Assembly: GCA_963704755.1 (NCBI GenBank)
Contig: OY969938.1
Span: 2,040,001 to 2,072,000 of the forward strand
Reading direction: 5' to 3'
DNA from: an uncultured Chloroflexia bacterium
GTDB lineage: Bacteria > Chloroflexota > Anaerolineae > Anaerolineales > Anaerolineaceae
Length of the DNA stretch: 32,000 nucleotides
Part shown: one piece after another, positions 605 through 18,843 of the stretch
How the letters are laid out: the number at the start of each line of letters is the position of its first letter
Position numbering within the stretch: the stretch's first letter is position 1
Translations under genes and position numbers: made by a program
Notes under the pieces: model-generated
Told to the model about the DNA's origin: nothing
The model's database searches: none
Seen by the model: only the letters and a program-made list of their open reading frames with translations

Positions 605-804
605 CTGGCTGTTGGCTTTTAGCGGTTAGCCCCACCATTAATATCCCGGTTTTGGTGACCAAACCGATATATGCTTTTGGTGGGCTTGACAAATGGCGAC
701 TAATTGGATATTATTTCGATATTATTTATTTCAATATCAAACAATATCTTGCTCGCTACCCTAAACCAAAATGGGATGAGCGGGATTTATGAAGGAGATA
801 CCCC

Positions 805-1427
805 ATGTCTGCCATCTCTGAAGCCAAAATGATTTCGTTTTCCCCGGCGGATCTGCCCTCTCGCGAGGGTTACCGCTTATTTGCCAGCCTGATTATCCCC
901 CGTCCAATCGCCTGGGTTTCCAGCATCGGTACGGATGGCACGCTCAACCTGGCGCCCTTTTCTTTTTTAATGCAGTGGCCGGCTCACCCCCCACCGTAAT
1001 GGTCTCGATCGGCCAGCGGAAAGGCCAACAAAAAGATACGCTGCGCAACATCACCGAGACCGGCGAGTTCGTCTTGAACATTGCCGGCCAGGACCTGATT
1101 GAATTGCTTAACGCTACCTCGATCGAAGCTGCCTACGAATTAAACGAGTTCGCCTACGCCGGCCTGGAAACGATGCCCTCTCTGCTGGTCAAGCCGCCGC
1201 GCGTCGCGGCTGCCCCGGCCGCCCTGGAAGTCCGCCTGAGCCAGATCGTCCCGATCACAAACAGCACCTACACCATGGTGCTTGGGCAAGTCGTGCAGTA
1301 TCACCTGCGGGAAGATTTGCTGCTCGAGAACGGCCTGGTCGATGCCAGAGCCTTGCAGCCGGTCATCCGCCTGGGCGGCAATGAGTATGCCCGCCTGGGC
1401 CAGATTTATGAATTGGAGAGGCCGTAA
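805..1427 (+). pseudogene. Flavin reductase-like protein (FMN-binding split-barrel, PF01613-type) interrupted by a 1-nt frameshift near 963-969
   Basis: ORF 805-999 (..RPIAWVSSIGTDGTLNLAPFSF) and ORF 975-1427 (AGSPPTVMVSIG...) read as one protein if the T6 run at 963-968 is shifted by one base, giving APFSF(F/L)NAVAGSPPTVMVSIG. RBS AAGGAGA at 791-797. Confidence 0.75.
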
Positions 1428-1437
1428 GGCCACATTG

Positions 1438-2470
1438 GTAGCCCGGCTTTTGTAGCCCGGCTTTTGTAGCCCGGCTTTCAAAGCCGGGAAAACGCTTGGC
1501 TTAAGAATTTCTGCGGTAGGAAACCGCGTTTCGGCCTCACCTGCGGCGGCTGAAGCCGCATCTACAAGGACACAAAGGCCCACCTGCGTGGGTCTCCCTT
1601 TGGGCAAGGGCCAATTCCACAGCCGGGATTTTTCCCGGCAAGCTGGCGTAGTGCCCTCACCCCGGCCCTCTCCCAGCGGACAGGGTTAGTTTAGATCGGC
1701 GTAATGCGCTGGGAGAGGGAGAATAACTTCAGAGGAGAGGGACCTCCGGTCCCTCTCCTCTGAAGTCCACTTCCTTCTCAGGCATGTGTGCTCTCGGATT
1801 AGAAACCCGGCTTTACCGTAGCCCGGCTTTCAAAGCCGGGAAAACGCTTGGCAGAAGAATCTCTGCGGTAGGAAACCGCGTTTTTGACCTCACTTGCGGC
1901 GGCTAAAGCCGCATCTACAAGGACACAAAGACCCACCTGCGTGGGTCTCCCTTTGGGCAAGGGCCAATTCCACAGCCGGGATTTTTCCCGGCAAGCTGGC
2001 GCAGTGCCCTCACCCCGGCCCTCTCCCAGCGGGCAGGGTTAGTTCACAGATTAGCATAATCCGCCGGGAGAGGGAGAATAACTTCAGAGGAGAGGGACCT
2101 CCGGTCTCTCTCCTCTGAATTCCACTTCCTTCTCCGGCGTGTGCTCTCGGATTAGAAACCCGGCTTTTGTAGCCCGGCTTTCAAAGCCGGGAAAACGCTT
2201 GGCTTAAGAATTTCTGCGGTAGGAAACCGCGTTTCGGCCTCACCTGCGGCGGCTGAAGCCGCATCTACAAGGACACAAAGACCCACGCAGGTGGGTCTCA
2301 TTTTCGGCTAGAGTTGATTCCAATGTCGAAAATCCGCCCGGCAAGCTTTCGAAAGCCCTCACACCGGCCCTCTCCCAGCGGGCAGGGTTAGTTCACAGAT
2401 TAGCATAATCCGCCGGGAAAGGGAGAGAAATCTCAGAGGAGAGGGACCTCCGGTCCCTCTCCTCTGTATT
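1438..2470. repeat. Tandem array of three ~351-bp units, each a chain of about six hairpin modules
   Basis: GTAGCCCGGCTTTCAAAGCCGGG recurs at 1466, 1818 and 2169. Units 1 and 2 are near-identical. Unit 3 has one module replaced. No credible coding frame. Confidence 0.9.
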
Positions 2471-2754
2471 CTTTCCCCCTCCCGGCCAGCCAGAGGAAAC
2501 CCAACCCAGGCGCCATTTGGCTGGGAGGGGCCGGGGGAGGGGCTGGATCGTACCGGCGGCGGCTAAAGCTGCCGCCGGTACGATTTGACCATCCCCAGAC
2601 GAATGTCCTGAGTTCCATCCTCATTAAACCTTTATTAATTAAGCCAAAACCGGTACACTATAAGGGGGATTGGTTACGGCTTAATCATGGCCGAAAAAGT
2701 ATTATTTCCGCATCGGTTGAGCAGTAACAGGAATTTCAAAAACGGGGTTGGACA

Positions 2755-3663
2755 ATGGAAATTATCACTTTTAACGGCTGGAAGAATTGTATCCGACTGG
2801 AAAACCTTTTGGTGGATCTGGTCATCGCAACCGATGTCGGTCCGCGGATCTTGCGCTACGGTTTTCTCGACGAAGAGAACGAATTTGTCGAAATTGCCGA
2901 AGACATGGGCAAGACCGGGGGAGACGTATGGCGTTCCTACGGCGGCCATCGTTTTCAGCACGCTCCCGAAGTAGCCGGACGAACGGATTACCCCGACAAC
3001 GAACCGGTACAATCCGAACAGAAAGGCGATCTGATCCGCCTGATCCAGCCAGTGGAACGCACCACCCTGATCCAAAAAGAGCTGGATGTCCGCCTATCAC
3101 CGGTGGATACCCACGTCCGGCTGGTCCACCGGCTGCGCAATACCAGCATGTGGGATATCCGCCTGGCTCCCTGGGCCTTGACCGTTATGGCCCCCGGCGG
3201 AACGGCCATCCTGCCTATGCCCCCGCGCGGCCCACACCCCGAATTCCTCAACCCGGTCAATACGATTTCGCTCTGGCCGTACACCGATATGAGCGACCCG
3301 CGCTGGATCTGGGGCCGCCAATACGTCATGCTGCGCCAGGACCCCCTGGTCCAGATCCCGCAGAAGATCGGCGCCTGCCTTCCGGGTGGTTGGATGGGCT
3401 ATGCCCGCCGTGGTCACCTCTTCATCAAAAAATTTGCCTGCGAGACCGGACTGGAATACCCCGATTTTGGTTCCAACGCCGAAGTTTTTACCAACGACCA
3501 GATTTTGGAAATGGAAACCCTTGGGCCTATGCAGATCATTCCGCCTGGCGGGGCGATCGAACACGTCGAAGACTGGTACCTGTTCCGTGACGTGCCCACT
3601 CCGCACAACGACTCGCAGGTGGAGCGGCACGTGCTGACCCGCATGGTCGAGACCGGCGTCTAA
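2755..3663 (+). CDS. Hypothetical protein. A galactose-mutarotase-like fold is suspected only
   Basis: 302-aa ORF with normal amino-acid composition, unlike the Arg/Pro-rich overlapping frames. The N-terminus (MEIITFNGWKNCIRLENLLVDLVIATDVGPRILRY) resembles epimerase-like DUFs. No firm motif. Confidence 0.7.
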   Translation: MEIITFNGWKNCIRLENLLVDLVIATDVGPRILRYGFLDEENEFVEIAEDMGKTGGDVWRSYGGHRFQHAPEVAGRTDYPDNEPVQSEQKGDLIRLIQPVERTTLIQKELDVRLSPVDTHVRLVHRLRNTSMWDIRLAPWALTVMAPGGTAILPMPPRGPHPEFLNPVNTISLWPYTDMSDPRWIWGRQYVMLRQDPLVQIPQKIGACLPGGWMGYARRGHLFIKKFACETGLEYPDFGSNAEVFTNDQILEMETLGPMQIIPPGGAIEHVEDWYLFRDVPTPHNDSQVERHVLTRMVETGV

Positions 3664-3746
3664 AAGGCGTAAATTTTTATGCAACCCATTCAGCGATTCC
3701 CGGATCCAGGAATCGCTGGTCTTAACTCAGCTTTAACCTGTTGCGC

Positions 3747-3775
3747 TTGACCCGCCCCGACCTTCCAGCTACAAT
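3747..3775 (+). promoter_or_regulatory. Sigma-70-type promoter
   Basis: TTGACC (3747-3752), 17-nt spacer, TACAAT (3770-3775). It lies upstream of the hairpin and the phosphatase gene. Confidence 0.55.
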
Positions 3776-3850
3776 GGGCCCAACCGGCGCCCGATTCTCC
3801 ACGCTGCGGGTAAAATAACTTCAATTCGGGATAAGCGAAAAACGGATTAT

Positions 3851-3903
3851 TTGAGTGTGTTTTTTTCGTGCCGGCTTCGCCGGCACGAAAAAAACACACT
3901 CAA
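3851..3903. repeat. Long perfect hairpin with GCTTCGC apex (family C, copy 1)
   Basis: 24-bp perfect stem TTGAGTGTGTTTTTTTCGTGCCGG / CCGGCACGAAAAAAACACACTCAA around CTTCG. The T-run is on the 5' arm and the A-run on the 3' arm, so this is not a classical terminator on either strand. Confidence 0.9.
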
Positions 3904-3944
3904 AAACCCTTATCCTATTGAGAAAAGACGGATCAGGATTTATT

Positions 3945-4736
3945 TTGGACACAGAACAGAAAACTACTCAAGAAGCTACGCTCAGCTTCATAAAATTTAT
4001 TCGTTTGTTGCGCGTCAGGCTGGTCACCCAGGGGCTCAAGGCCACTTTATGGTGGAGCTTCAACCTCTTCAACCGCCTGATCCTGGACCGGCCGCTCCGC
4101 GGCCAGTGCCAGGTGACCCCTCAGTTGTTCGTCGGTGCCCAGTTTCGCCAGCGCGGCTGGCAGGTGCTGCACCGTTGGGGCATCACCGGCGTGGTCAACA
4201 TGCGCAGCGAGTTCGACGACCTGAGTCTGGGGGTTGATATACCGGCTTACCTGGCCCTGCCCACCCGCGACGACGACGCCCCCAGCCTGGAAAACCTGGA
4301 GCGCGGCGTGGCCTTCATCCGCCAGGAGTTCGAAAAAGGCGGCAAGGTGTATATCCACTGCGGGGCCGGTGTGGGTCGCGCGCCGACCATGGCCGCCGCC
4401 TACCTGGTCACCACCGGGCTGACGCCCGAACAGGCTTACGAGACCATCCGCAAACAGCGCATTTTCATCCGCCCCACCCGCGTCCAGCGCGAACAATTGC
4501 AGCGCTTCGCCGATTTGGCCGTTCAAGGGAACCCCACTGAAGCCATGCTGGCTGCGGAGAATCCCCCCTTATCCCCCCTTGCTGAGGCTGTGAAGAAATT
4601 CCAGGCACACTATTGTTGCCATGGAATAATCGATTCTCAAGAATTCCTCATGTATCTGGAATTCTTCACAGCCTCCAAGGGGGGAAAGGCTCGCCATTTC
4701 TTGCCCACTTTTAAAAGGGGGATGGGGGATTCTTGA
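3945..4736 (+). CDS. Dual-specificity (Cys-based, CX5R) protein phosphatase. The start codon is uncertain
   Basis: Active-site signature VYIHCGAGVGRAP (HCxxGxxR). The ORF is open from 3855, but that part covers the hairpin. TTG at 3945 follows AGGA (3935-3938). The last ~59 codons derive from a palindromic element. Confidence 0.75.
   Translation: MDTEQKTTQEATLSFIKFIRLLRVRLVTQGLKATLWWSFNLFNRLILDRPLRGQCQVTPQLFVGAQFRQRGWQVLHRWGITGVVNMRSEFDDLSLGVDIPAYLALPTRDDDAPSLENLERGVAFIRQEFEKGGKVYIHCGAGVGRAPTMAAAYLVTTGLTPEQAYETIRKQRIFIRPTRVQREQLQRFADLAVQGNPTEAMLAAENPPLSPLAEAVKKFQAHYCCHGIIDSQEFLMYLEFFTASKGGKARHFLPTFKRGMGDS
4558..4733. mobile_element. MITE-like 176-bp palindromic element
   Basis: Terminal inverted repeats AGAATCCCCC (4558-4567) and GGGGGATTCT (4724-4733). 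Subterminal arms CCCCCCTTGCTGAGGCTGTGAAGAAATTCCAG (4573-4604) and CTGGAATTCTTCACAGCCTCCAAGGGGGG (4656-4684). Confidence 0.6.
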
Positions 4737-4762
4737 AATGGCCTGAAGTCCGGCAAATTGGT

Positions 4763-5236
4763 TTACACGTTTTGTTGTTTTAAGGTTTCCTGCCATCCGA
4801 ACAATTGGGTCCGGACGGCATAAGCATCCTCGCGGTCCAGCAGGTGGATGCCCTGGCGGGCTAATCGCTCCGCCAGGGTGGATTCAAGCGAGACCTGGTA
4901 CAGGGCCAGCAGCGCTTCGGCGTCATCGTCGGCGGCGATGCGGTTGATAGATATCTCCCCGCATTCGCTGCAGTGATGCACCAGCATCAGCTCACCCTGT
5001 CCGGCGCAGACATAGCGTTTGAACGTCAATTTGCGCGTCAGGCCGACCGGCTGCATGGCACCCTTGCAGGCCGAGAGGCGGTCACCGGCCTGGTACAGGT
5101 CCAGGTGACGCGACCACAGGCAGTAAGGGCAGTGATTGCGGTTGCGCACACCTGCCAGCAGCACCTCGGCTGTGACGTAAGCCCGGCAATGCTTGCAGAT
5201 AAAATCCGCGTTGGGGGATGGCTGCTGCCGGCTCAT
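4763..5236 (-). CDS. RNHCP domain-containing zinc-ribbon protein
   Basis: Contains the eponymous RNRNHCPYCLWSRH motif and further Cys pairs (CKHC, CSEC). Its ATG overlaps the rsgA stop (ATGA). Confidence 0.85.
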   Translation of the reverse strand: MSRQQPSPNADFICKHCRAYVTAEVLLAGVRNRNHCPYCLWSRHLDLYQAGDRLSACKGAMQPVGLTRKLTFKRYVCAGQGELMLVHHCSECGEISINRIAADDDAEALLALYQVSLESTLAERLARQGIHLLDREDAYAVRTQLFGWQETLKQQNV

Positions 5237-6195
5237 TGTTCGGCCTGTAAGCTGATGAAATTCTTGTAACGCCGCGGGCTGATCTGGCCGGCCATGACCG
5301 CCTTGCGCACGGCGCAGCCGGGCTCTTCGTCATGGCAGCAGTCCAGGCCAAAGCGGCACTGCCCCAAATAGGGACGCATTTCGGGGAAGAAGTAAGCCAG
5401 GTCTTGCCCTTCCAGGCCCCACAAGCCAAACTCGCGCACCCCAGGCGTATCCAGGATAGCGCCGCCGAAGCCCAGATCGAACAGCTCCGCCTGGGTAGTG
5501 GTGTGCTTGCCTTTACCCGTCACCTGGCTGACCTGATTGACCCGCAGCCCCAGGCCGGGCTGGAGCGCGTTCAGCAGGGATGTTTTGCCCACGCCGGACT
5601 TGCCCAGCAGGGCCGAAACCTTGCCGGCCAGGGCTGCGCGGACTTCCGCTAGGCCCGCACCGGTGTGGGCGCTGACTATTTGCACCGGGTAACCGATGCG
5701 CCGGTACTCTGTGGCGACCGATTTAAGCTCATCTTTTTGGCCATCGTCAGCGCCGACCAGGTCGAACTTGGTGATGATAATCAGCGTCGGGATGCTGGAC
5801 GACTCGGCCGATACCAGGTAACGGTCGAGCATGTTCCAGTGCGGCGCGGGATTGGCGGCCGCAAAGACCGGCACGACCTGGTCGAGGTTGGCGGCGATCA
5901 CCTGCTCGTGGGCGTACGCGCCCGGCATAGGTACGGGCGAGCGGCGGGAGAGTTGGTTCTGGCGCGGCAGGATCTCCTGGATCACGCCACGATGATCCGC
6001 CTGGTATGTATAGGCCACCCGGTCACCTACGACCGGCAGTTCCGCGGGATCCATTTTTCGTCCCGATTTCGAGCTGCTGCCGCGGCTCACCAGGCTGCAC
6101 AAAGTGCTCTGGCTATCGCTGTGAACCTCATAGACCCCATTGGTTTTCTTGTAAACGGTCCCAGAGGTAGGACCATGTTCGTCGTTCATCTTCAT
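5233..6195 (-). CDS. rsgA: Ribosome small-subunit-dependent GTPase A
   Basis: Circularly permuted GTPase motifs: TKFDLV (G4), then GKSGVGKTSLLNAL (G1), DTPGVREF (G3), and a C-terminal CxxxxCxH...C zinc knuckle (CRFGLDCCHDEEPGC). The start is set at MKMNDEHG (ATG, complement of 6193-6195), because the longer ORF runs through a terminator. Confidence 0.9.
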   Translation of the reverse strand: MKMNDEHGPTSGTVYKKTNGVYEVHSDSQSTLCSLVSRGSSSKSGRKMDPAELPVVGDRVAYTYQADHRGVIQEILPRQNQLSRRSPVPMPGAYAHEQVIAANLDQVVPVFAAANPAPHWNMLDRYLVSAESSSIPTLIIITKFDLVGADDGQKDELKSVATEYRRIGYPVQIVSAHTGAGLAEVRAALAGKVSALLGKSGVGKTSLLNALQPGLGLRVNQVSQVTGKGKHTTTQAELFDLGFGGAILDTPGVREFGLWGLEGQDLAYFFPEMRPYLGQCRFGLDCCHDEEPGCAVRKAVMAGQISPRRYKNFISLQAEQ

Positions 6196-6218
6196 TGGTA
6201 CAAACCCTATCCAAATAT

Positions 6219-6251
6219 AAAAAAGCCAGCCCGGGTTAATTCCCGTGGCTG
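6219..6251 (-). terminator. Intrinsic terminator-like hairpin 25 nt upstream of the rsgA start
   Basis: Minus strand reads GCCAGCCACGGGAATTAACCCGGGCTGGC followed by TTTTTT. Confidence 0.6.
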
Positions 6252-6348
6252 GCGGTCGTGCAGAAAGCGTTGAGCGCTTTATCGGAGGGTGCCTGACAGG
6301 CACCGGGACGCAGAGCAGTCCCTTTCCCGGCAGTACTGCCGGGGAATT

Positions 6349-6380
6349 AAAAAGCCACGGGCTATGAACACACCCGTGGC
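6349..6380 (-). terminator. Intrinsic terminator after the small ORF
   Basis: Minus strand reads GCCACGGG-TGTGTTCATAG-CCCGTGGC followed by TTTTT. Confidence 0.6.
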
Positions 6381-6411
6381 AATTAGAATTCAGATAGGGT
6401 TAAACTTTCGC

Positions 6412-9435: not shown

Positions 9436-9455
9436 GAATTTATCTGAAAATTGCC

Positions 9456-9502
9456 CTAGGGGTTTGTTTTGTGAGGCGAAGCCTCACAAAACAAACCCCT
9501 AG
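9456..9502. repeat. Family-C hairpin, copy 4, with the apex in the opposite orientation (GCGAAGC)
   Basis: CTAGGGGTTTGTTTTGTGAGGC-GAA-GCCTCACAAAACAAACCCCTAG, a perfect stem. Confidence 0.9.
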
Positions 9503-9786
9503 AATTATTTTTCGAACAGAAATTTATCTGAAAACACCTTTTTTGAAACCCAGACCATTCAATTCCGTATACTTTTTTACTAGTTAACTTCTCATTTTCT
9601 TCAATAAATCCATAAAAGTAGGCCCGTCGTGACCGGCTCTTAAAACGCCCCAGGCACATGAGCCTGCTTTACGGTTATCCCTGTCGATCCATCAAACCCC
9701 TTTATTCGTTTTGCCCGATATCGTACAGCGGGTGAGGCAAACAGGCGGTTTGTGTTTTTGTGTTTCATATCTTCTGGAGATCTCGA

Positions 9787-11307: not shown

Positions 11308-11568
11308 CTTTTAGGGCAATTTCTGCATTTGCAGTGGCAAAGCCACCGAAACAGGCGTTCTTTGAAAACAGAGAAACAATAGCCGGTGGCTTCGCCATTA
11401 CGCCAATCCATTAAGATCGCAACTTTCAAAAGGGAGAAATAGTGGGAAAATTTGCAATCCTGACAGGTCCAGCATTGGCCCTGTAAATAGGTAAGAAAAG
11501 TTTATCCAAGTGGAGCTGGATGATTTAACATGAGAAGATTTATTCTTCTTTTGTCATAAGAGGTTTTA

Positions 11569-11577
11569 TGCTATAGT
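11569..11577 (+). promoter_or_regulatory. Extended -10 promoter of cassette 1
   Basis: TGCTATAGT. The identical 21-nt block TTATGCTATAGTATTCTTA recurs upstream of the paralogue at 17680. Confidence 0.55.
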
Positions 11578-11622
11578 ATTCTTATTGGTGAAACAATAGA
11601 TCCAGGATTTGGGGGAAAGAAA

Positions 11623-13020
11623 ATGACAATTTTCCAATTAAACTGTCATCCAGAAGAATTGTTTCAATTACAAGAAATCAATCCGGAATTATACACTGCG
11701 CTCATCAGCAAAGATCAACTCATTGAAATCCTATACGGTAAGCCACCCTACAATGTGGTGATCGGTGTTCCTCACCAAGCGGCAATAGGTGTCAAGTCCA
11801 TTGCAGAAAACGGTCGTGAGCGTGCTTCCGATGAAGGGGCTGCGTTTTATGCCCTTGTTGCGTTTTTGAGGCTTAAAGAGCAACAAATTCCATGCAAAAT
11901 CGTTATTTCCGCTCATGATACTCAATTAGACCCTAATAAAGACTCGAATAGTTCTTATTGGAAATCCATTTTTGCTAATGAGATGAAATTATTATTGGAG
12001 TGTCATGGCGCAAAAAAGGACGTGGATAAGATCGATCTTGAAATTTCATCAGGGAAGAACACGTATAGTCATCCTCTTATTTTCGGTCGAGAGCTTGCTA
12101 AAGAAACCGGATATAAATATGGCTTAGTAGCCCAAAAAGACGTTTGTAGCAAAGACGGAATCCAGGTTGCCAAAGATGGCGAGACACCAAAATGTTTACG
12201 AAATGCAGCGATAAGAACCGCTTCATTGGTTGAAGCAAATTGTCAAAAGATTCCAGCTTTACATATTGAGGCAACTCCGAAATTCCGTATCCCGGAAGAT
12301 AACACTAATACGGTTACACACTATGGGCTTGTTCTAGGTGAGGCAATAGGCAGGGTATTAATTGCGCTATTTATATCTGAAAAGCCAAATATAAAAATAT
12401 TAAACCATTACACGAAATTGTTCTATATGCTACAAATGATCATTGAAAAGAAGATTTTCCTAACCAAACCTTGTACGTGGGAGGACAAAAACGACGTTGA
12501 AGCAATGAAACAATATCAATGTGCAGTAGGTAGAGGAAATATATATGCAATTTGCTTTGAGGGACGACGCGAAACTATCCATCACTGGAAAGCATACGCA
12601 GGTGGTGTTACAGGGTGTTGCATTGAATTTAATAAAGAAAATTTGATTAACCACTTAAAAGATCAAGATGATTCAATAAAATATGGCAATGTTAATTATT
12701 TGGAAATCAAAAAGCTAAAAGTGTCAAATTTTCACATTGATTGTCTTCCATTTATTAAACGAATTCCATATCAATTTGAACATGAATATCGGGTAATATG
12801 GGTAAATAATGGGTCAGAAGACTTATTGGTTAAAGAATTTGAACTCGATACAAACACAATTAATAAAATTACTATCAGTTATTTTATGCCATATGATGAT
12901 TATCGCATCATAAAAAATTTCGTTGACAACAAATTGGGAAGAGATGTTGTTAATCAATCAACAATTTATGAAAACGACGAATGGATTACAGAAATTAAAA
13001 GAATCGGAAATGGATACTAA
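11623..13020 (+). CDS. Uncharacterised two-domain protein: N-terminal ~250-aa FGase-like (tentative) domain plus C-terminal DUF2971-like domain
   Basis: Low-GC ORF with GGGGGAAAG RBS. N-domain blocks: VIGVPHQ, SDEGAAFYALV, AHDTQLDPNK, LLLECHG, LEISSG, LHIEATPKFRIPE. C-domain blocks: LNHYT...TWEDKNDVE, IYAICFE...HHWKAYAGGVTGCCIEFNKENL, YGNVNY, FIKRIPYQFEHEYRVIW. Confidence 0.8.
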   Translation: MTIFQLNCHPEELFQLQEINPELYTALISKDQLIEILYGKPPYNVVIGVPHQAAIGVKSIAENGRERASDEGAAFYALVAFLRLKEQQIPCKIVISAHDTQLDPNKDSNSSYWKSIFANEMKLLLECHGAKKDVDKIDLEISSGKNTYSHPLIFGRELAKETGYKYGLVAQKDVCSKDGIQVAKDGETPKCLRNAAIRTASLVEANCQKIPALHIEATPKFRIPEDNTNTVTHYGLVLGEAIGRVLIALFISEKPNIKILNHYTKLFYMLQMIIEKKIFLTKPCTWEDKNDVEAMKQYQCAVGRGNIYAICFEGRRETIHHWKAYAGGVTGCCIEFNKENLINHLKDQDDSIKYGNVNYLEIKKLKVSNFHIDCLPFIKRIPYQFEHEYRVIWVNNGSEDLLVKEFELDTNTINKITISYFMPYDDYRIIKNFVDNKLGRDVVNQSTIYENDEWITEIKRIGNGY

Positions 13021-13053
13021 AAGAATTATCTACATAAATCTTGAAACCAATAA

Positions 13054-13308
13054 CCTCCAGTCCAGCTAAAGATCCCTTCATCTCTTTTTGCATGCGTTGA
13101 AGAGCGGGATTACGCCCTGGCTATTCGCAAGAAATTAGAGGAAATCGCCATTGACCCTTTCGCCACCCATAAGAATTGCAAAAAACTACAAGGGCGACCG
13201 GGCTATCGTTTGCGGGTTGGTGATTGGCGAGTTATATATGAGATTAATCAAAATGAAGTGCTCATTATCGTTTTGAAAGTAGCACCAAGAGGCGAGGTGT
13301 ATCGATGA
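13054..13308 (+). pseudogene. RelE/ParE-family toxin remnant lacking a start codon and part of its N-terminus
   Basis: The frame reads ..IRKKLEEIAIDPFATHKNCKKLQGRPGYRLRVGDWRVIYEINQNEVLIIVLKVAPRGEVYR*. There is no ATG/GTG/TTG between the upstream stop (13051-13053) and the conserved core. Its stop overlaps the antitoxin ATG (ATGA). Confidence 0.65.
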
Positions 13309-13685
13309 ACGTTCAAATTATTAAAAATAGCGGCAAACCAGAATGGGCAGTGCTGCCTTACCAGACTTATCTTAAACTCGTCGAAAAAGCCGAAATGCTG
13401 GAAGATATTCGTGATTACGACCAGGCCAAAGCCGATCTCGAGAATGGGCGAGAGGAACTGATCCCGGCGGAGCTGATTTTCGCTATCCAGGACGGCAAGA
13501 ACCCGATTAAGGCCTGGCGCGAATATCGCAGCTTATCCCAACAAGAATTGGCCGATATGGCCGACATCAGTGTTCCTTATTTGTCTCAACTGGAAACCGG
13601 TCGCAGAAAAGGCTCGCTGGAAGTTTTGACAGAAATTGCCAAAGCGCTTAAAGTCTCGTTGGATAACCTGACACCGGCCGATTGA
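13305..13685 (+). CDS. Antitoxin-like protein with a C-terminal Xre-type HTH
   Basis: The C-terminal SQQELADMADISVPYLSQLETGRRKGSLEVLTEIAKAL is a classic HTH_3 pattern. It is positioned downstream of, and coupled to, the RelE-like frame. Confidence 0.8.
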   Translation: MNVQIIKNSGKPEWAVLPYQTYLKLVEKAEMLEDIRDYDQAKADLENGREELIPAELIFAIQDGKNPIKAWREYRSLSQQELADMADISVPYLSQLETGRRKGSLEVLTEIAKALKVSLDNLTPAD

Positions 13686-13727
13686 TTATTTTTACGGATC
13701 CACTTTTTGCTTCTTCTTCGTAACGCT

Positions 13728-13812
13728 GTAGGGTGGGTGCAGGGCTCATAAACAACGCTCGCGAACAAAGAAGTAGCCGTCCCCACCAGGGAATAGCCCG
13801 TAACCCACTATG
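13728..13812 (+). repeat. Family-A element, copy 3
   Basis: GTAGGGTGGGTGCAGGGCTCAT...GCCCGTAACCCACTAT. Confidence 0.8.
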
Positions 13813-13820
13813 ATGTCGTG

Positions 13821-13903
13821 ATGGTGGGTTACGGGCAAGGATTCGTAGATTTTGCCTGAGCGCCGGACCCCGGCGCTATAAACGAGCCCTGCACCCACCT
13901 TAC
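13821..13903 (-). repeat. Family-A element, copy 4, inverted and head-to-head with copy 3
   Basis: ATGGTGGGTTACGGGC...GAGCCCTGCACCCACCTTAC. Confidence 0.8.
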
Positions 13904-13964
13904 ACCATTTTTTTAAAAAAACTTCTCCGTGCCTCAGTATTTTATTTGTAAAGTAAGTGCCGTA

Positions 13965-14049
13965 ATGGTGCGTTCCGGGCACGCCGGTGTAGGCGAATGA
14001 CCTGATGATCCGCCGGTGCCAGAGAAGTCAGCCCTCAAACGCACCCTAC
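13965..14049 (-). repeat. Family-A variant, copy 5, with co-varying arms
   Basis: ATGGTGCGTTCCGGGC...GCCCTCAAACGCACCCTAC. GGTGCG replaces GGTGGG in both arms. Confidence 0.65.
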
Positions 14050-14070
14050 GACGAGGCGTTTTTAAAATAG

Positions 14071-14121
14071 TCTCTCTTCTTCTCTTTCCTTTCTCCGTGA
14101 ACTCCGTGCCTCCGTGGTTTT
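14071..14121 (+). repeat. Family-B element containing three CTCCGTG direct repeats
   Basis: TTCTCCGTGAACTCCGTGCCTCCGTGGTTTT (14091-14121) is identical to 18708-18738. A degenerate copy lies at 13921-13950. Confidence 0.85.
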
Positions 14122-14159
14122 ATTTGCAAAGTCAGTACCACAATGGTGAGGATTCGCTC

Positions 14160-14187
14160 TTGTAATTCCTTTGCTTTTAGCTAAAAT
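14160..14187 (+). promoter_or_regulatory. Putative promoter of the GntR gene
   Basis: TTGTAA, 16-nt spacer, TAAAAT. The ATG is 19 nt downstream of the -10, with no obvious SD. Confidence 0.45.
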
Positions 14188-14205
14188 AGGTATGACGACT
14201 ATCGT

Positions 14206-14994: not shown

Positions 14995-15043
14995 GAAATT
15001 TTTATTATTTTGCGTGCTTCGCCCGCAAAATAATAAAAATTTC
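14995..15043. repeat. Family-C hairpin, copy 5, with an AT-rich stem
   Basis: GAAATTTTTATTATTTTGCG-TGCTTCGCC-CGCAAAATAATAAAAATTTC. Confidence 0.85.
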
Positions 15044-15072
15044 GTAACTGCTCAGGCAAGTGCGCAAGGCGA

Positions 15073-15127
15073 GGGTGTTTTTATTATTTTTTGTGCGCTT
15101 CGCGCACAAAAAATAATAAAAACACCC
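15073..15127. repeat. Family-C hairpin, copy 6. Its stem is paralogous to copy 5
   Basis: GGGTGTTTTTATTATTTTTTGTGCGC-TTC-GCGCACAAAAAATAATAAAAACACCC, a perfect 26-bp stem. Confidence 0.9.
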
Positions 15128-15279
15128 TAAACCTCTGTAGTAGCTAAGTAGTTACAAAATTTCTACCTCCTGACCCTGCTCGAGCAGCCACCAGGCAATT
15201 TTTCCAATCCGCGTATAGGGAGATCGGAAACCCAACTCTCGCTATGTTCAGCCATTTTCTGATCGGATCGAGGTGAAAA

Positions 15280-17221
15280 ATGAACCTGCTTCAAATGCGA
15301 ATGAACTCTTTTGACGAACTCGTCCTGGCCGCCCGTGGAGAAATCCCGGTCGACTTGCTTATCGAGGGGGGAAAGATACTCAACGTCCAGACCGGGGATA
15401 TCCTGGAGGGCAACATTGCCGTCCACAAGGGCTTTATCGTCTCCCTATTTTTAAAAAATATCCAAGCGCACAAACGCATCGACGCCAGGGGCAAAATTGC
15501 CCTGCCGGCCTTCATCGACCCGCACGTGCACGTCGAAAGCTCGATGGTTCTGCCGCCCGCTTACGCCCAGGTAGTGGCTGCCAACGGTACCGGTACGGTG
15601 CTGGCCGACCCGCACGAAATCGTCAACGTGATGGGGGTGGATGGCTTCTCGCTGATGGAGGAGAACACCGCCGATTTGCCCCTGCGGCTCTTCTTCGATA
15701 TCCCAACCTGTGTGCCCTCCAAACGAGCCGCCGAGTCGTCCGGGGCCGATATCCAGGCCGGGGAAGTGCGCGAGATGGCCCGGCGTGGCGGCCGCAAACT
15801 GGGCGAGTTGATGAGCTACGAGGAAATCATCGGCGGCGAACCGGTTATGACCGGCATCGTCAAAACCGGCTGGGAGTTGGGCCTGCCGCGTGACGCCCAT
15901 TTCCCCATGTTCTCTGTGCTGGGCGGCGCGTTCAATGCGCTCAACGTGCCTCAAAAGCTGGGTGTAGGCCTGGGGCTGCTCGGCTCACAACTGCTCAAAT
16001 GGCCGGCCCTAAATGCGCTGCCCTATTCGATCTTCAGCAAACAACTACGCAAACAGGAATACGCCGATTTGAATGCCTACCTGGTAGCCCTGGGCCTGAC
16101 CGCCGATCACGAGACCTACGGGCCGGAAATCCAGATCAAGCTGGATCACGGAATGCACCTGATGATCAGCTCGCACGTCTTCCTGACTTTTCCCCAGATG
16201 ATGCCAATCCTGTTACAAGGGGTACGCCGGCTGAAATACAAAGATGCAATCGGCTTATGCACCGACGATTTGTGGCCGGACGACCTGCTCGCCATGGGGG
16301 GCATCGTAGGCGTGCTGCGCCACCTGGTCAAGAACGGCATCGACCCGGTCGACGCGGTGCGCTTTGCCACGATCAATAACGCCCAGCGCCTGGCCCAGGC
16401 CGGCCTGGCCGAAGGGTCTTTGATTGGCGCACTCGTGCCGGGCATGGCCGCCGATATCGTCCTGGTAGAGGAACCGCTGCGGCAATTCAAGATCGCCACG
16501 GTCATCCACGAGGGCAAGGTAGTGGCCGAAAACGGCAGCCTCACCCAGGCTTTGCCTGCTCCCAAAATCCCCGCGGCCGCGCTGGATTCGGTGCGGCTCA
16601 CACCGGTTAGCGCCGATACCTTCCGCATTCCCGCGCCGGCCGGCGTGCGCAATGGGACGACCCGCGCGCGGGTGCTGGTGCTGCCCAAACCACCCGACCT
16701 GCCCTTCCCCAACCTGTCTGAGGTGGAAGTCCCGGTAGTAGATCGCTACCTCGACCCGGGCAGCTACATTCTCATCGCCGCCTTCAATCGCTACGGCAAA
16801 GCGGGCAAATCGCCCACGATTGGGCTGATCCAGGGCTATACATTAAAAGAAGGCGCAGCCGCCAGCACCCTTTGCCACGATTCTTCACAACCTGATCGTT
16901 TTGGGCACAAACCCGGCCGATATGGCCGTGGCGGCCAACACGGTTATTGCGATGAAGGGCGGCATGGCGGCCGTGCGCAATAACCAGGTGCTGGCCAAAA
17001 TACCCTTCCCGATCGGCGGCCTGATGACCGAAGACACAGTCGAGGCTATGGCCGTCCAGGCGCGCGCGTTCCGCCAGGCCATCGACACGCTGGGGTTAGA
17101 CCCCAAGAGCCCCATCTTGCCCTTTGCGATCTTCTCGCTGCCGGCCGGCCCTGGCGACAAGGTCACCGATCGCGGCATCTGGGATGGGAGTAAACACGAG
17201 CTGGTGGAGCTGCTGGTGTAA
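15280..17221 (+). pseudogene. ade: Adenine deaminase (amidohydrolase superfamily) interrupted by a +1 base near 16885
   Basis: The N-terminus (LPAFIDPHVHVESSMVLPPAYAQVVAANGTGTVLADPHEIVNVMG) fits adenine deaminase. ORF 16901-17221 continues the family C-terminus. Reading GAT TCT [T] CAC AAC CTG restores ..CHDSHNLIVLGTNPADMAVAAN... RBS GAGGTG upstream of 15280. Confidence 0.8.
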
Positions 17222-17392: not shown

Positions 17393-17679
17393 TTGCCTCA
17401 CCTTAAAAAGTCGTGGGGAACGCTTTGTCCCAGGCGATTTAAAAAGTTGATCAATCCGCTCTACCCAACCTCTACAGCTACCGTTTCTCCTGAACGGTCG
17501 CGTCACACAGCGTCGAAACAATAACTCTTTTTATCATTGCCCTGGCCGCTTTTGCCAGGGTGCGGCAATCTCAACAAGGACTCGTTAGAGACTCTCGCAA
17601 GAATCGCGAAGACTCTCATGCTCATATTCGATGATTTGATACCGATAGACTGGTTCTTCACACCACCACCGGGTGTTTA

Positions 17680-17688
17680 TGCTATAGT
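17680..17688 (+). promoter_or_regulatory. Extended -10 promoter of cassette 2
   Basis: TGCTATAGT within the same conserved block as 11569-11577. Confidence 0.55.
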
Positions 17689-17733
17689 ATTCTTACCAAA
17701 GAATGTTTATTTTCGCATTCAAGGAAAAATGGA

Positions 17734-18690: not shown

Positions 18691-18738
18691 TCTCTTCTCT
18701 CTTTCTTTTCTCCGTGAACTCCGTGCCTCCGTGGTTTT
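18691..18738 (+). repeat. Family-B element, second full copy
   Basis: TCTCTTCTCTCTTTCTTTTCTCCGTGAACTCCGTGCCTCCGTGGTTTT. The 31-nt core is identical to 14091-14121. Confidence 0.85.
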
Positions 18739-18843
18739 CTTACCTTCTGTGGTTTACTTACTTTCCTGTCCAAGCGTATAATGGTCTCAGAGGGTTTGGA
18801 TGGTTGGGTCTCTTTTTGCACAAAACCAATAAGAGGACAAATC

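Follow-up and report, generated by a model that had tools for sequence, protein, structure and literature searches.

A stretch of 32,000 nucleotides from an uncultured Chloroflexia bacterium (GenBank assembly GCA_963704755.1, contig OY969938.1, positions 2,040,001 to 2,072,000 of the forward strand), hereafter the window, carries a gene whose product joins two domains: (i) an N-terminal domain (N-domain) with the fold of N-formylglutamate amidohydrolase (FGase) and of the poly-gamma-glutamate hydrolase PghP; and (ii) a C-terminal DUF2971 domain, predicted to be an ADP-ribosyltransferase (ART) akin to DarT. The preferred explanation, to which a probability of roughly 0.55 is assigned, is that this fusion is a two-domain toxin or antiphage protein of the cytoplasm, acquired by horizontal transfer and consisting of an ART effector and an accessory hydrolase-like module. 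A sequence-only reading of the window had called the fusion unreported-looking, and the domain-architecture search agrees: among 5.8 billion protein clusters, both halves are covered by one protein, the window's own.

Both domains are confidently folded in the structure models and the open reading frame (ORF) is intact. At the junction, the end of one module meets the start of the other. Where the N-domain stands alone, the protein usually stops 13-18 residues past G239, stand-alone ARTs usually start 7-9 residues ahead of the motif LN[RH][FY]T, and in the fusion 20 residues separate these two landmarks. No ATG, GTG or TTG inside the ORF could start a separate ART gene including motif I, and splitting the ORF would take two compensating indels within ~15 nucleotides. 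Direct reading of the protein sequence finds no signal peptide.

The C-terminal DUF2971 domain

The C-terminal half matches the Pfam family PF11185 (DUF2971) over residues 322-373 with 27.3 bits against a gathering score of 22 (E 9.4e-6). Since this score lies above the gathering threshold, the motif set of the half is not a chance pattern and, on profile evidence, the half is a true DUF2971 domain, as had been proposed from the letters of the DNA. The motifs in question are HYT (residues 262-264), EDKNDVE (287-293), ICFEG (310-314), HHWKAY (320-325) and FEHEYR (385-390); these and the motifs first read in the N-terminal half are all present where they had been placed, the latter on columns conserved in their family. 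Furthermore, four PADLOC models of the PDC-S31 type match residues 263-453 (best E 1.9e-15).

The closest homologues of this half are 84 stand-alone proteins of ~205-220 residues with identities of at most 42%; the nearest of them, 37-42% identical, belong mostly to Bacteroidota and Verrucomicrobiota. In an alignment of 54 sequences, the following residues are invariant: W286, D288, N290, D291, E317, H320, W322, G331, C333, F336, Y359, P376, F377, K379, R380, E386, E388 and R390. An AlphaFold2 (AF2) model built from the same alignment reaches a predicted local distance difference test (pLDDT) value of 92.4. When this model was compared with the Protein Data Bank (PDB) by Foldseek, the six best matches were all DarT, led by 7yk3_A (E 6.7e-4; template modelling (TM) score 0.46) and followed by 7omy, 7omw and 7omv. 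After DarT, the list continues with SopF and Tpt1/KptA, both of which are ART-fold enzymes.

Contrary to the earlier statement, DUF2971 is no longer without an assigned function. The domain has been classed as a predicted DarT/AbiGi-like ART with a conserved tyrosine and an ExE motif, and tied to DarT by sequence (PMC12522546), while Aristaios, a DUF2971 protein from a lactococcal plasmid with an ART fold, is a demonstrated single-gene antiphage system (PMC11381338). Because of this predicted ART activity, the antiphage role of Aristaios and the DarT matches at the top of the fold list, the C-terminal half is most plausibly an effector or toxin. The proposed pairing of an enzymatic module with a sensor or effector module is accordingly read differently, with the C-terminal half now the likely effector.

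The fusion shares with the PDC-S31 proteins and Aristaios the DUF2971 domain, and its predicted ART fold agrees with that reported for Aristaios. It differs from them in architecture: PDC-S31 (models of 208-273 positions) and Aristaios (316 residues) are single-domain proteins, whereas the fusion carries an additional N-terminal hydrolase-like domain of 251 residues and so departs from the PDC-S31 arrangement, which is kept by all 49 relatives seen in genomic context (stand-alone, 200-258 residues). With DarT the domain has in common the ART superfamily, the catalytic glutamate motif and the best structural match. In contrast to DarT, it gives no Pfam DarT match (DUF2971 alone is found at E<=10), and the structural matches have TM scores of 0.42-0.46 at 8-9% identity. 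No DarG-like macrodomain partner was found when the flanking ORFs were scanned with Pfam, and the 49 loci of the ART subfamily share no conserved neighbour gene.

The N-terminal domain and its family

The N-terminal half contains, in order, the motifs P50-H51-Q, S69-D-E-G72, A97-H98-D-T-Q-L-D103-P-N105-K106, E126-C-H128-G, E140-I-S-S-G144 and H214-I-E216...R222. These motifs, too, are no chance pattern, as the half belongs to a family of 123 representative proteins, obtained at E<=1e-3 when 1.84 billion representatives were searched exhaustively with a profile. Two tiers can be distinguished in it: (i) close members of ~255-270 residues; and (ii) remote members of ~210-220 residues. The tiers are clearly homologous (hhalign probability 99.8%, E 5e-30). 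An alignment of 60 sequences drawn from both shows no variation at P50, H51, N105, K106, Y112, E126, H128, E140, G144 and E216, and conservation of 90% or more at D70, D103, H214 and R222. Among the close members, the only named relatives are Leptolinea tardivitalis and a Thermodesulfobacteriota metagenome-assembled genome (MAG). The family and the stand-alone paralogue in the window, which is 58% identical to fusion residues 1-250 (E 6e-100; coding DNA ~73% identical), bear out the view that the N-domain is an independent module.

No profile model describes this family in the libraries searched. Pfam, NCBIfam, PADLOC and PHROGs yielded no meaningful match for the N-terminal half, and comparison with PDB sequences (phmmer, and hmmsearch with profiles of 32 and 60 sequences) returned only a chance-level match (E 0.93). 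Neither the N-domain nor the ART subfamily was found on plasmid records, phage records or viral contigs; because of this absence, both subfamilies look host-side.

The fold is more informative. The AF2 model of the N-domain (pLDDT 93.5; predicted TM score 0.92) has as its best PDB matches 2q7s (N-formylglutamate amidohydrolase; E 1.1e-5, TM 0.48) and 2odf (E 4.7e-5), the only two PF05013 members with solved structures, followed by M14 carboxypeptidases, M17 and M28 aminopeptidases and Amidase_3. In the BFVD viral structures, the best E-values belong to proteins named N-formylglutamate amidohydrolase (Pithovirus), and the best TM scores (0.50/0.56) to a poly-gamma-glutamate hydrolase of Bacillus phage Bobb, a PghP homologue. 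In published work, PghL has its close homologue PghP as nearest structural neighbour, with 2odf and 2q7s next in line (PMC6506827). The claim of an FGase-like N-terminal half is hence upheld for the fold, with 2q7s and 2odf at the top, and fails for membership of the PF05013 and PF05908 profiles, which Pfam does not match; judging from the models, the N-domain is best regarded as a new family with the FGase/PghP fold.

In PghP, zinc is bound by H40, E45 and H103; activity is impaired by alanine at H40, E45, H78, H103 or E165; and Glu165 is spatially equivalent to Glu270 of carboxypeptidase A (PMC6506827). The N-domain has H51, D70/E71, H98, H128 and E216 in the same order as PghP (PF05908, 3a9l; and PghL) has H40, E45, H78, H103 and E165, and its remote tier is of PghP size. 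The candidate ligands named in the sequence-only reading fit this scheme with one correction, since its His50 is off by one and the residue is His51: H51, D70/E71 and H128 are invariant or nearly so and would be co-linear with H40, E45 and H103. A PF05908 profile of 50 sequences, built in this analysis, aligns co-linearly with the N-domain by hhalign over 165-176 columns (score 24-26, E 0.004-0.01, probability 4-8%; 1-8% when all comparisons with this profile are counted). This weak alignment places H51 on H40, H128 on H103, E216 on E165 and R222 on R170; D70 falls on E45 in the tier-2 alignment only, and H98 lies ~4 positions off H78. The hhalign probability against the single PghP sequence is 0.09, and a local PghP hidden Markov model found nothing in the 65 N-domain loci. 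The profile support for homology with PghP is weak and no more than suggestive, and the catalytic constellation of the N-domain is plausibly equivalent to that of PghP. The loop from His98 to Lys106 also occupies the place of the FGase motif D.NR given in the sequence-only reading.

Some differences from the known enzymes are clear. FGase (PF05013) provides the best PDB folds and a similar order of conserved motifs, but the TM scores are 0.39-0.48, two beta-hairpins of the N-domain (residues 59-68 and 178-191) are additional, and the context of the domain is defence rather than histidine utilisation, with no hut genes among the neighbours in the window. PghP, for its part, occurs as a secreted or a phage enzyme and acts on a capsule polymer, whereas the N-domain would be cytoplasmic and is fused to intracellular effectors.

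Members of the N-domain family have joined with a variety of partners, which are defence proteins. One set of fusions links the domain to TmtA of Tiamat: the protein of locus L071 (1869 residues; 791-6400) consists of an N-domain followed by a full-length TmtA (PADLOC E = 0, model positions 8-1535 of 1538), P0120 (1270 residues) has the same architecture (TmtA E 8e-255), and further examples are P0117, L097 (3121-6129), L075 and L065 (2859-6671). TmtA has been described in one analysis as containing a PD-(D/E)XK nuclease domain (bioRxiv 10.1101/2024.10.26.620412). These Tiamat variants resemble the window's protein in having an N-terminal domain of the same family ahead of a defence effector; they differ in that the partner is TmtA, with no ART, and in that they recur in several metagenomes, whereas the ART fusion was seen once. 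The PADLOC model of TmtA excludes the hydrolase-like N-terminal domain. Other partners are the DUF4268 / PDC-S11 C-terminal domain (P0118) and a GNAT acetyltransferase (P0139), and the order of N-domain first and effector second is kept in the DUF4268, GNAT and TmtA fusions. Remote members are linked to DUF4145, PRTase-CE (below threshold) and YheC/D ATP-grasp.

As a stand-alone gene, the N-domain occurs most commonly in an operon, found in 9-14 of the 65 loci (e.g. L069, L077 and L080), that of Leptolinea tardivitalis included, with the order N-domain, SspB-like DUF4007, a protein of ~165-200 residues and an SspC-like protein of ~1370 residues. Where the flanks were inspected (L001, L002 and L008), HTH_17 and, after the operon, an MmeI/PglX-type methyltransferase are present in an integrase-bearing island. 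The arrangement resembles a hybrid defence system of the Ssp/BREX kind that has not been described before. Other N-domain loci adjoin methyltransferase/helicase/PLD genes or SMC/SNF2/PLD genes; restriction-modification, PLD and helicase genes are among these neighbours.

Further observations concern individual members. The Leptolinea tardivitalis locus (L001, 8001-16804) reads HTH_17, N-domain, SspB-like DUF4007, a protein of ~163 residues, an SspC/BrxC-like protein of ~1371 residues and a methyltransferase. In P0206 (1309 residues), a remote member is fused to a YheC/D ATP-grasp domain. In P0116 and P0129 (both ~575 residues) and in L117 (2-2014), the domain of the N-family is C-terminal, and the N-terminal parts of ~310-425 residues match nothing.

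Origin of the fusion and its surroundings

DUF2971 is carried by one of the 123 representatives of the N-domain family, namely the window protein. None of the 65 N-domain loci has a DUF2971 gene nearby, and in the 49 ART loci, where every ART stands alone, no gene resembling the N-domain or PghP lies within 6 kilobases. The guanine plus cytosine (GC) content is 40.5% in the N-terminal half and 30.3% in the C-terminal half, with a step at the junction; the host genes have 58-64%, and the host neighbours have a GC content at third codon positions (GC3) of 74-79%. As far as sequence can establish it, the fusion gene is shown to be of foreign origin and horizontally acquired.

A block of 20 nucleotides, TTTATGCTATAGTATTCTTA, stands ahead of the fusion gene and, in an identical second copy, ahead of the paralogue (Table 1). 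It comprises an extended -10-like element (TGcTATAGT) and a near-palindrome, and occurs twice in the window, where no copy is expected by chance. The block is probably a shared promoter or operator, by which the fusion gene and the paralogue would be co-regulated. In consensus scans for promoters and terminators, the number of sites did not exceed chance expectation. Taken together, the GC step and the shared block suggest that an ART gene of lower GC content was attached to the 3' end of an N-domain gene already resident with its promoter.

Table 1. Coordinates in the window of the fusion gene, its domains and candidate catalytic residues, and related features.
Feature	Position	Strand	Remarks
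Intact fusion ORF, 465 residues	11623..13020	+	FGase/PghP-fold N-domain, 6-residue linker, DUF2971 ART C-domain; stop codon included
N-domain, residues 1-251	11623..12375	+	alpha/beta zinc-exopeptidase (FGase/PghP-like) fold in the model; GC 40.5%, GC3 34.5%
Linker S-E-K-P-N-I	12376..12393	+	end-to-start join of the modules; junction analysis
C-domain, residues 258-465 (208 residues)	12394..13017	+	DUF2971 / PDC-S31-type, predicted DarT-like ART fold; GC 30.3%, GC3 27%
His51 (PHQ)	11773..11775	+	invariant candidate metal ligand; aligns with PghP His40
Asp70-Glu71 (SDEG / DEN motif)	11830..11835	+	candidate acidic metal ligand; on PghP Glu45 in the tier-2 profile alignment
His98...Asp103-Pro-Asn105-Lys106 loop	11914..11940	+	follows strand 91-97; place of the PghP His78/Thr80/Ser81 substrate loop
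Glu126-Cys-His128-Gly	11998..12009	+	His128 invariant candidate metal ligand; aligns with PghP His103
His214-Ile-Glu216...Arg222	12262..12288	+	Glu216 invariant candidate general base; aligns with PghP Glu165
ART motif I, H262-Y-T	12406..12414	+	subfamily norm R-[FY]-T: R in 51/54, H in 2/54
Invariant Tyr359	12697..12699	+	candidate ART motif II tyrosine, motif assignment inferred; alignment and PMC12522546
E386-x-E388-x-R390	12778..12792	+	invariant ExE motif III (ART catalytic); alignment and PMC12522546
Stand-alone N-domain paralogue, 254 residues	17734..18498	+	GC 39.6%, GC3 34.5%
TTTATGCTATAGTATTCTTA, first copy (20 nucleotides)	11565..11584	+	ends 38 nucleotides before the fusion ATG
TTTATGCTATAGTATTCTTA, second copy	17676..17695	+	ends 38 nucleotides before the paralogue ATG; identical
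Low-GC islet, 30-49% GC	11308..14205		between host genes of 58-64% GC; holds the fusion gene, ParE remnant and HTH gene
ParE/RelE toxin remnant	13060..13308	+	5'-truncated, no start codon; Pfam ParE_toxin positions 26-89 of 89
HTH_3 (XRE-type) antitoxin-like regulator, 126 residues	13305..13685	+	intact; overlaps the ParE remnant by 4 nucleotides

The ORFs that flank the fusion encode an FAD oxidoreductase, the ParE remnant, the HTH_3 protein (with a helix-turn-helix, HTH) and a GntR regulator. The HTH gene at 13305 was considered as an antitoxin for the fusion and rejected: it forms a degraded toxin-antitoxin pair with the ParE remnant and is probably not a partner of the fusion. An adenine-deaminase-like amidohydrolase gene (15280-17221) is frameshifted near 16890, so that the ORF at 15280-16983 covers positions 8-65 of Adenine_deam_C and the ORF at 16901-17221, in another frame, positions 70-168 of 169; it is either a pseudogene or the result of a sequencing error. 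A possible synteny between the N-domain and a large amidohydrolase, in the window and in L004, was discarded on the ground that the amidohydrolases are not orthologous.

Several repeats were also observed. A direct repeat of 44 nucleotides (14081-14124 and 18698-18741; 95% identical, with an identical core of 31 nucleotides; none expected by chance) has its copies downstream of the two low-GC patches that bear N-domain genes, and could be either the remnant of an insertion site or a repeat of the dispersed kind. Two intergenic palindromes are present: (i) one at 9447-9511, with arms of 31 nucleotides, 87% complementary, and a loop of 3 nucleotides; and (ii) a perfect, AT-rich one of 27 nucleotides at 15072-15128, with a related copy at 14999-15039.

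Proposed function and alternatives

In the preferred explanation, the ART domain would be the effector, using NAD+ to ADP-ribosylate nucleic acid, most likely DNA by analogy with DarT, and this modification would halt the cell or the phage. The N-domain would be a catalytically competent metal-dependent amidohydrolase that acts as an accessory control or licensing module common to DNA-directed defence effectors: it would sense or process an amide-linked substrate and thereby gate the effector. The fusion itself would have arisen in this lineage, when a resident N-domain gene was joined end to start to a lower-GC ART gene of a kind that otherwise always stands alone. A control or licensing role is favoured because the N-domain is constant and its effector-type partners (ART, nuclease-type and GNAT) are varied; a role as ADP-ribosyl hydrolase or ART-specific antitoxin is unlikely because of the frequent non-ART partners.

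A number of results weigh against this explanation. The fusion is known from a single genome and its modules are never neighbours in the 49 ART loci or the 65 N-domain loci, so that functional coupling has no independent support. Fold matches are moderate in both domains (TM 0.45-0.56); PF05013 and PF05908 are absent from Pfam results at E<=10 for the query and 32 close members, and at E<=1 for 47 remote members; and the PF05908 comparison by hhalign is weak, slightly above the 13-19 scored by reversed or unrelated controls. In its ART motif I the fusion bears His, against Arg in 51 of 54 relatives, and the distance to Aristaios exceeds what tblastn against plasmids can detect. PDC-S31 and PDC-S11 are candidate defence systems, and the counts of Ssp-like loci may be inflated, as many could come from closely related organisms. 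Lastly, there are decayed genes in or near the islet.

The first alternative, possible although unlikely, is that the chain carries two independent effectors, the N-domain being toxic or degradative towards a metabolite, peptide or cell-wall precursor in parallel with the ART. Enzymatic modules with varied fusion partners can be defence effectors, which counts for this alternative, as do the full catalytic-looking invariant set kept by the N-domain and its presence, as a gene of its own, in operons that also encode large ATPases. Nevertheless, the partners (ART, DUF4268, GNAT and TmtA) are themselves of effector type and the N-domain is the constant part, which is the pattern of a sensor or regulator; moreover, lacking a signal peptide, the protein would have to exert any cell-wall role from the cytoplasm.

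It is also doubtful that the fusion is an evolutionary accident, that is, a recent and possibly non-functional chimera or an assembly artefact, produced by deletion between adjacent foreign genes in a decaying islet. Its restriction to one genome, the GC step of 10 points exactly at the junction, the broken neighbours (the ParE remnant and the frameshifted adenine deaminase) and the minority R-to-H exchange in motif I are what such an accident would leave. The ORF is, however, intact, and none of the residues invariant in either family has been lost; the two modules meet exactly, across a linker of 6 residues and with no internal start codon, and two compensating indels would be needed to split them; and the order of N-domain and effector recurs independently with DUF4268, GNAT and TmtA. 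As to the exchange, His and Arg are the two canonical residues of ART motif I, so the His of the fusion is itself canonical.

That the N-domain might be a new ADP-ribosyl hydrolase acting as an antitoxin in cis, an analogue of the DarG macrodomain with the paralogue as a copy in trans, is very unlikely. A hydrolase next to an ART would follow the logic of DarTG, with 7yk3 as the top fold match, and the paralogue, behind an identical promoter block, provides another N-domain at a distance of 4.7 kilobases. But most of the family has non-ART partners (TmtA, DUF4268, GNAT and the Ssp-like operon), the stand-alone ART relatives (49/49) do without a conserved partner gene, and we know of no ADP-ribosyl hydrolase with the FGase/PghP fold. 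Finally, although FGase and PghP are the nearest folds, a metabolic enzyme (a true N-formylglutamate amidohydrolase or gamma-glutamyl hydrolase with an extra domain) is hardly credible, given the unmatched PF05013 and PF05908, the lack of histidine-utilisation genes nearby, the foreign base composition and a family context of defence islands.

A 'glutamylation switch' was considered as well, prompted by an adjacent RimK-type ATP-grasp gene, the YheC/D fusion and published operons of DUF2971 with peptidase C26 (PMC12522546). The adjacency is that of the closest stand-alone ART relative, from a Melioribacter MAG (L011, 6001-7655), where the ATP-grasp gene lies 9 nucleotides downstream in an integrase island. 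As ATP-grasp adjacency amounts to 1 of 49 loci plus one weak case, the idea was demoted to speculation.

Beyond the proposed toxin or antiphage protein, a bolder and rather improbable extension sees in the N-domain the prototype of a new zinc amidohydrolase family associated with defence, a catalytic module that several DNA-directed immune effectors would share for their licensing. In the window the effector would be the DarT-like ART; in other genomes the module would serve the Tiamat nuclease, DUF4268 and an Ssp/BREX-like operon. Hydrolysis of an amide-linked, infection-specific substrate would switch on the effector or give access to it; possible substrates are: (i) an amino-acid-type hypermodification on phage DNA; (ii) a phage peptide; or (iii) an inhibitory amino-acyl mark on the effector. 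If this is true, an amidohydrolase-gated ADP-ribosyltransferase would represent a scheme of abortive infection or toxin control that has not been described before.

The ARTs of the DUF2971 / PDC-S31 type are otherwise compact single-gene modules, and the fusion is the only known case in which one is joined to another domain. An ART of the PDC-S31/Aristaios type is known; the accessory domain, with ~120 representative clusters and no model in the libraries searched, is new. This accessory family, with its conserved enzyme-like site, is a testable new accessory module of bacterial immunity and a more interesting product than the fusion itself. It deserves a profile model with which annotation pipelines can detect its members, and the substrate of the N-domain could explain phage sensing or action in Tiamat, PDC-S11 and PDC-S31.

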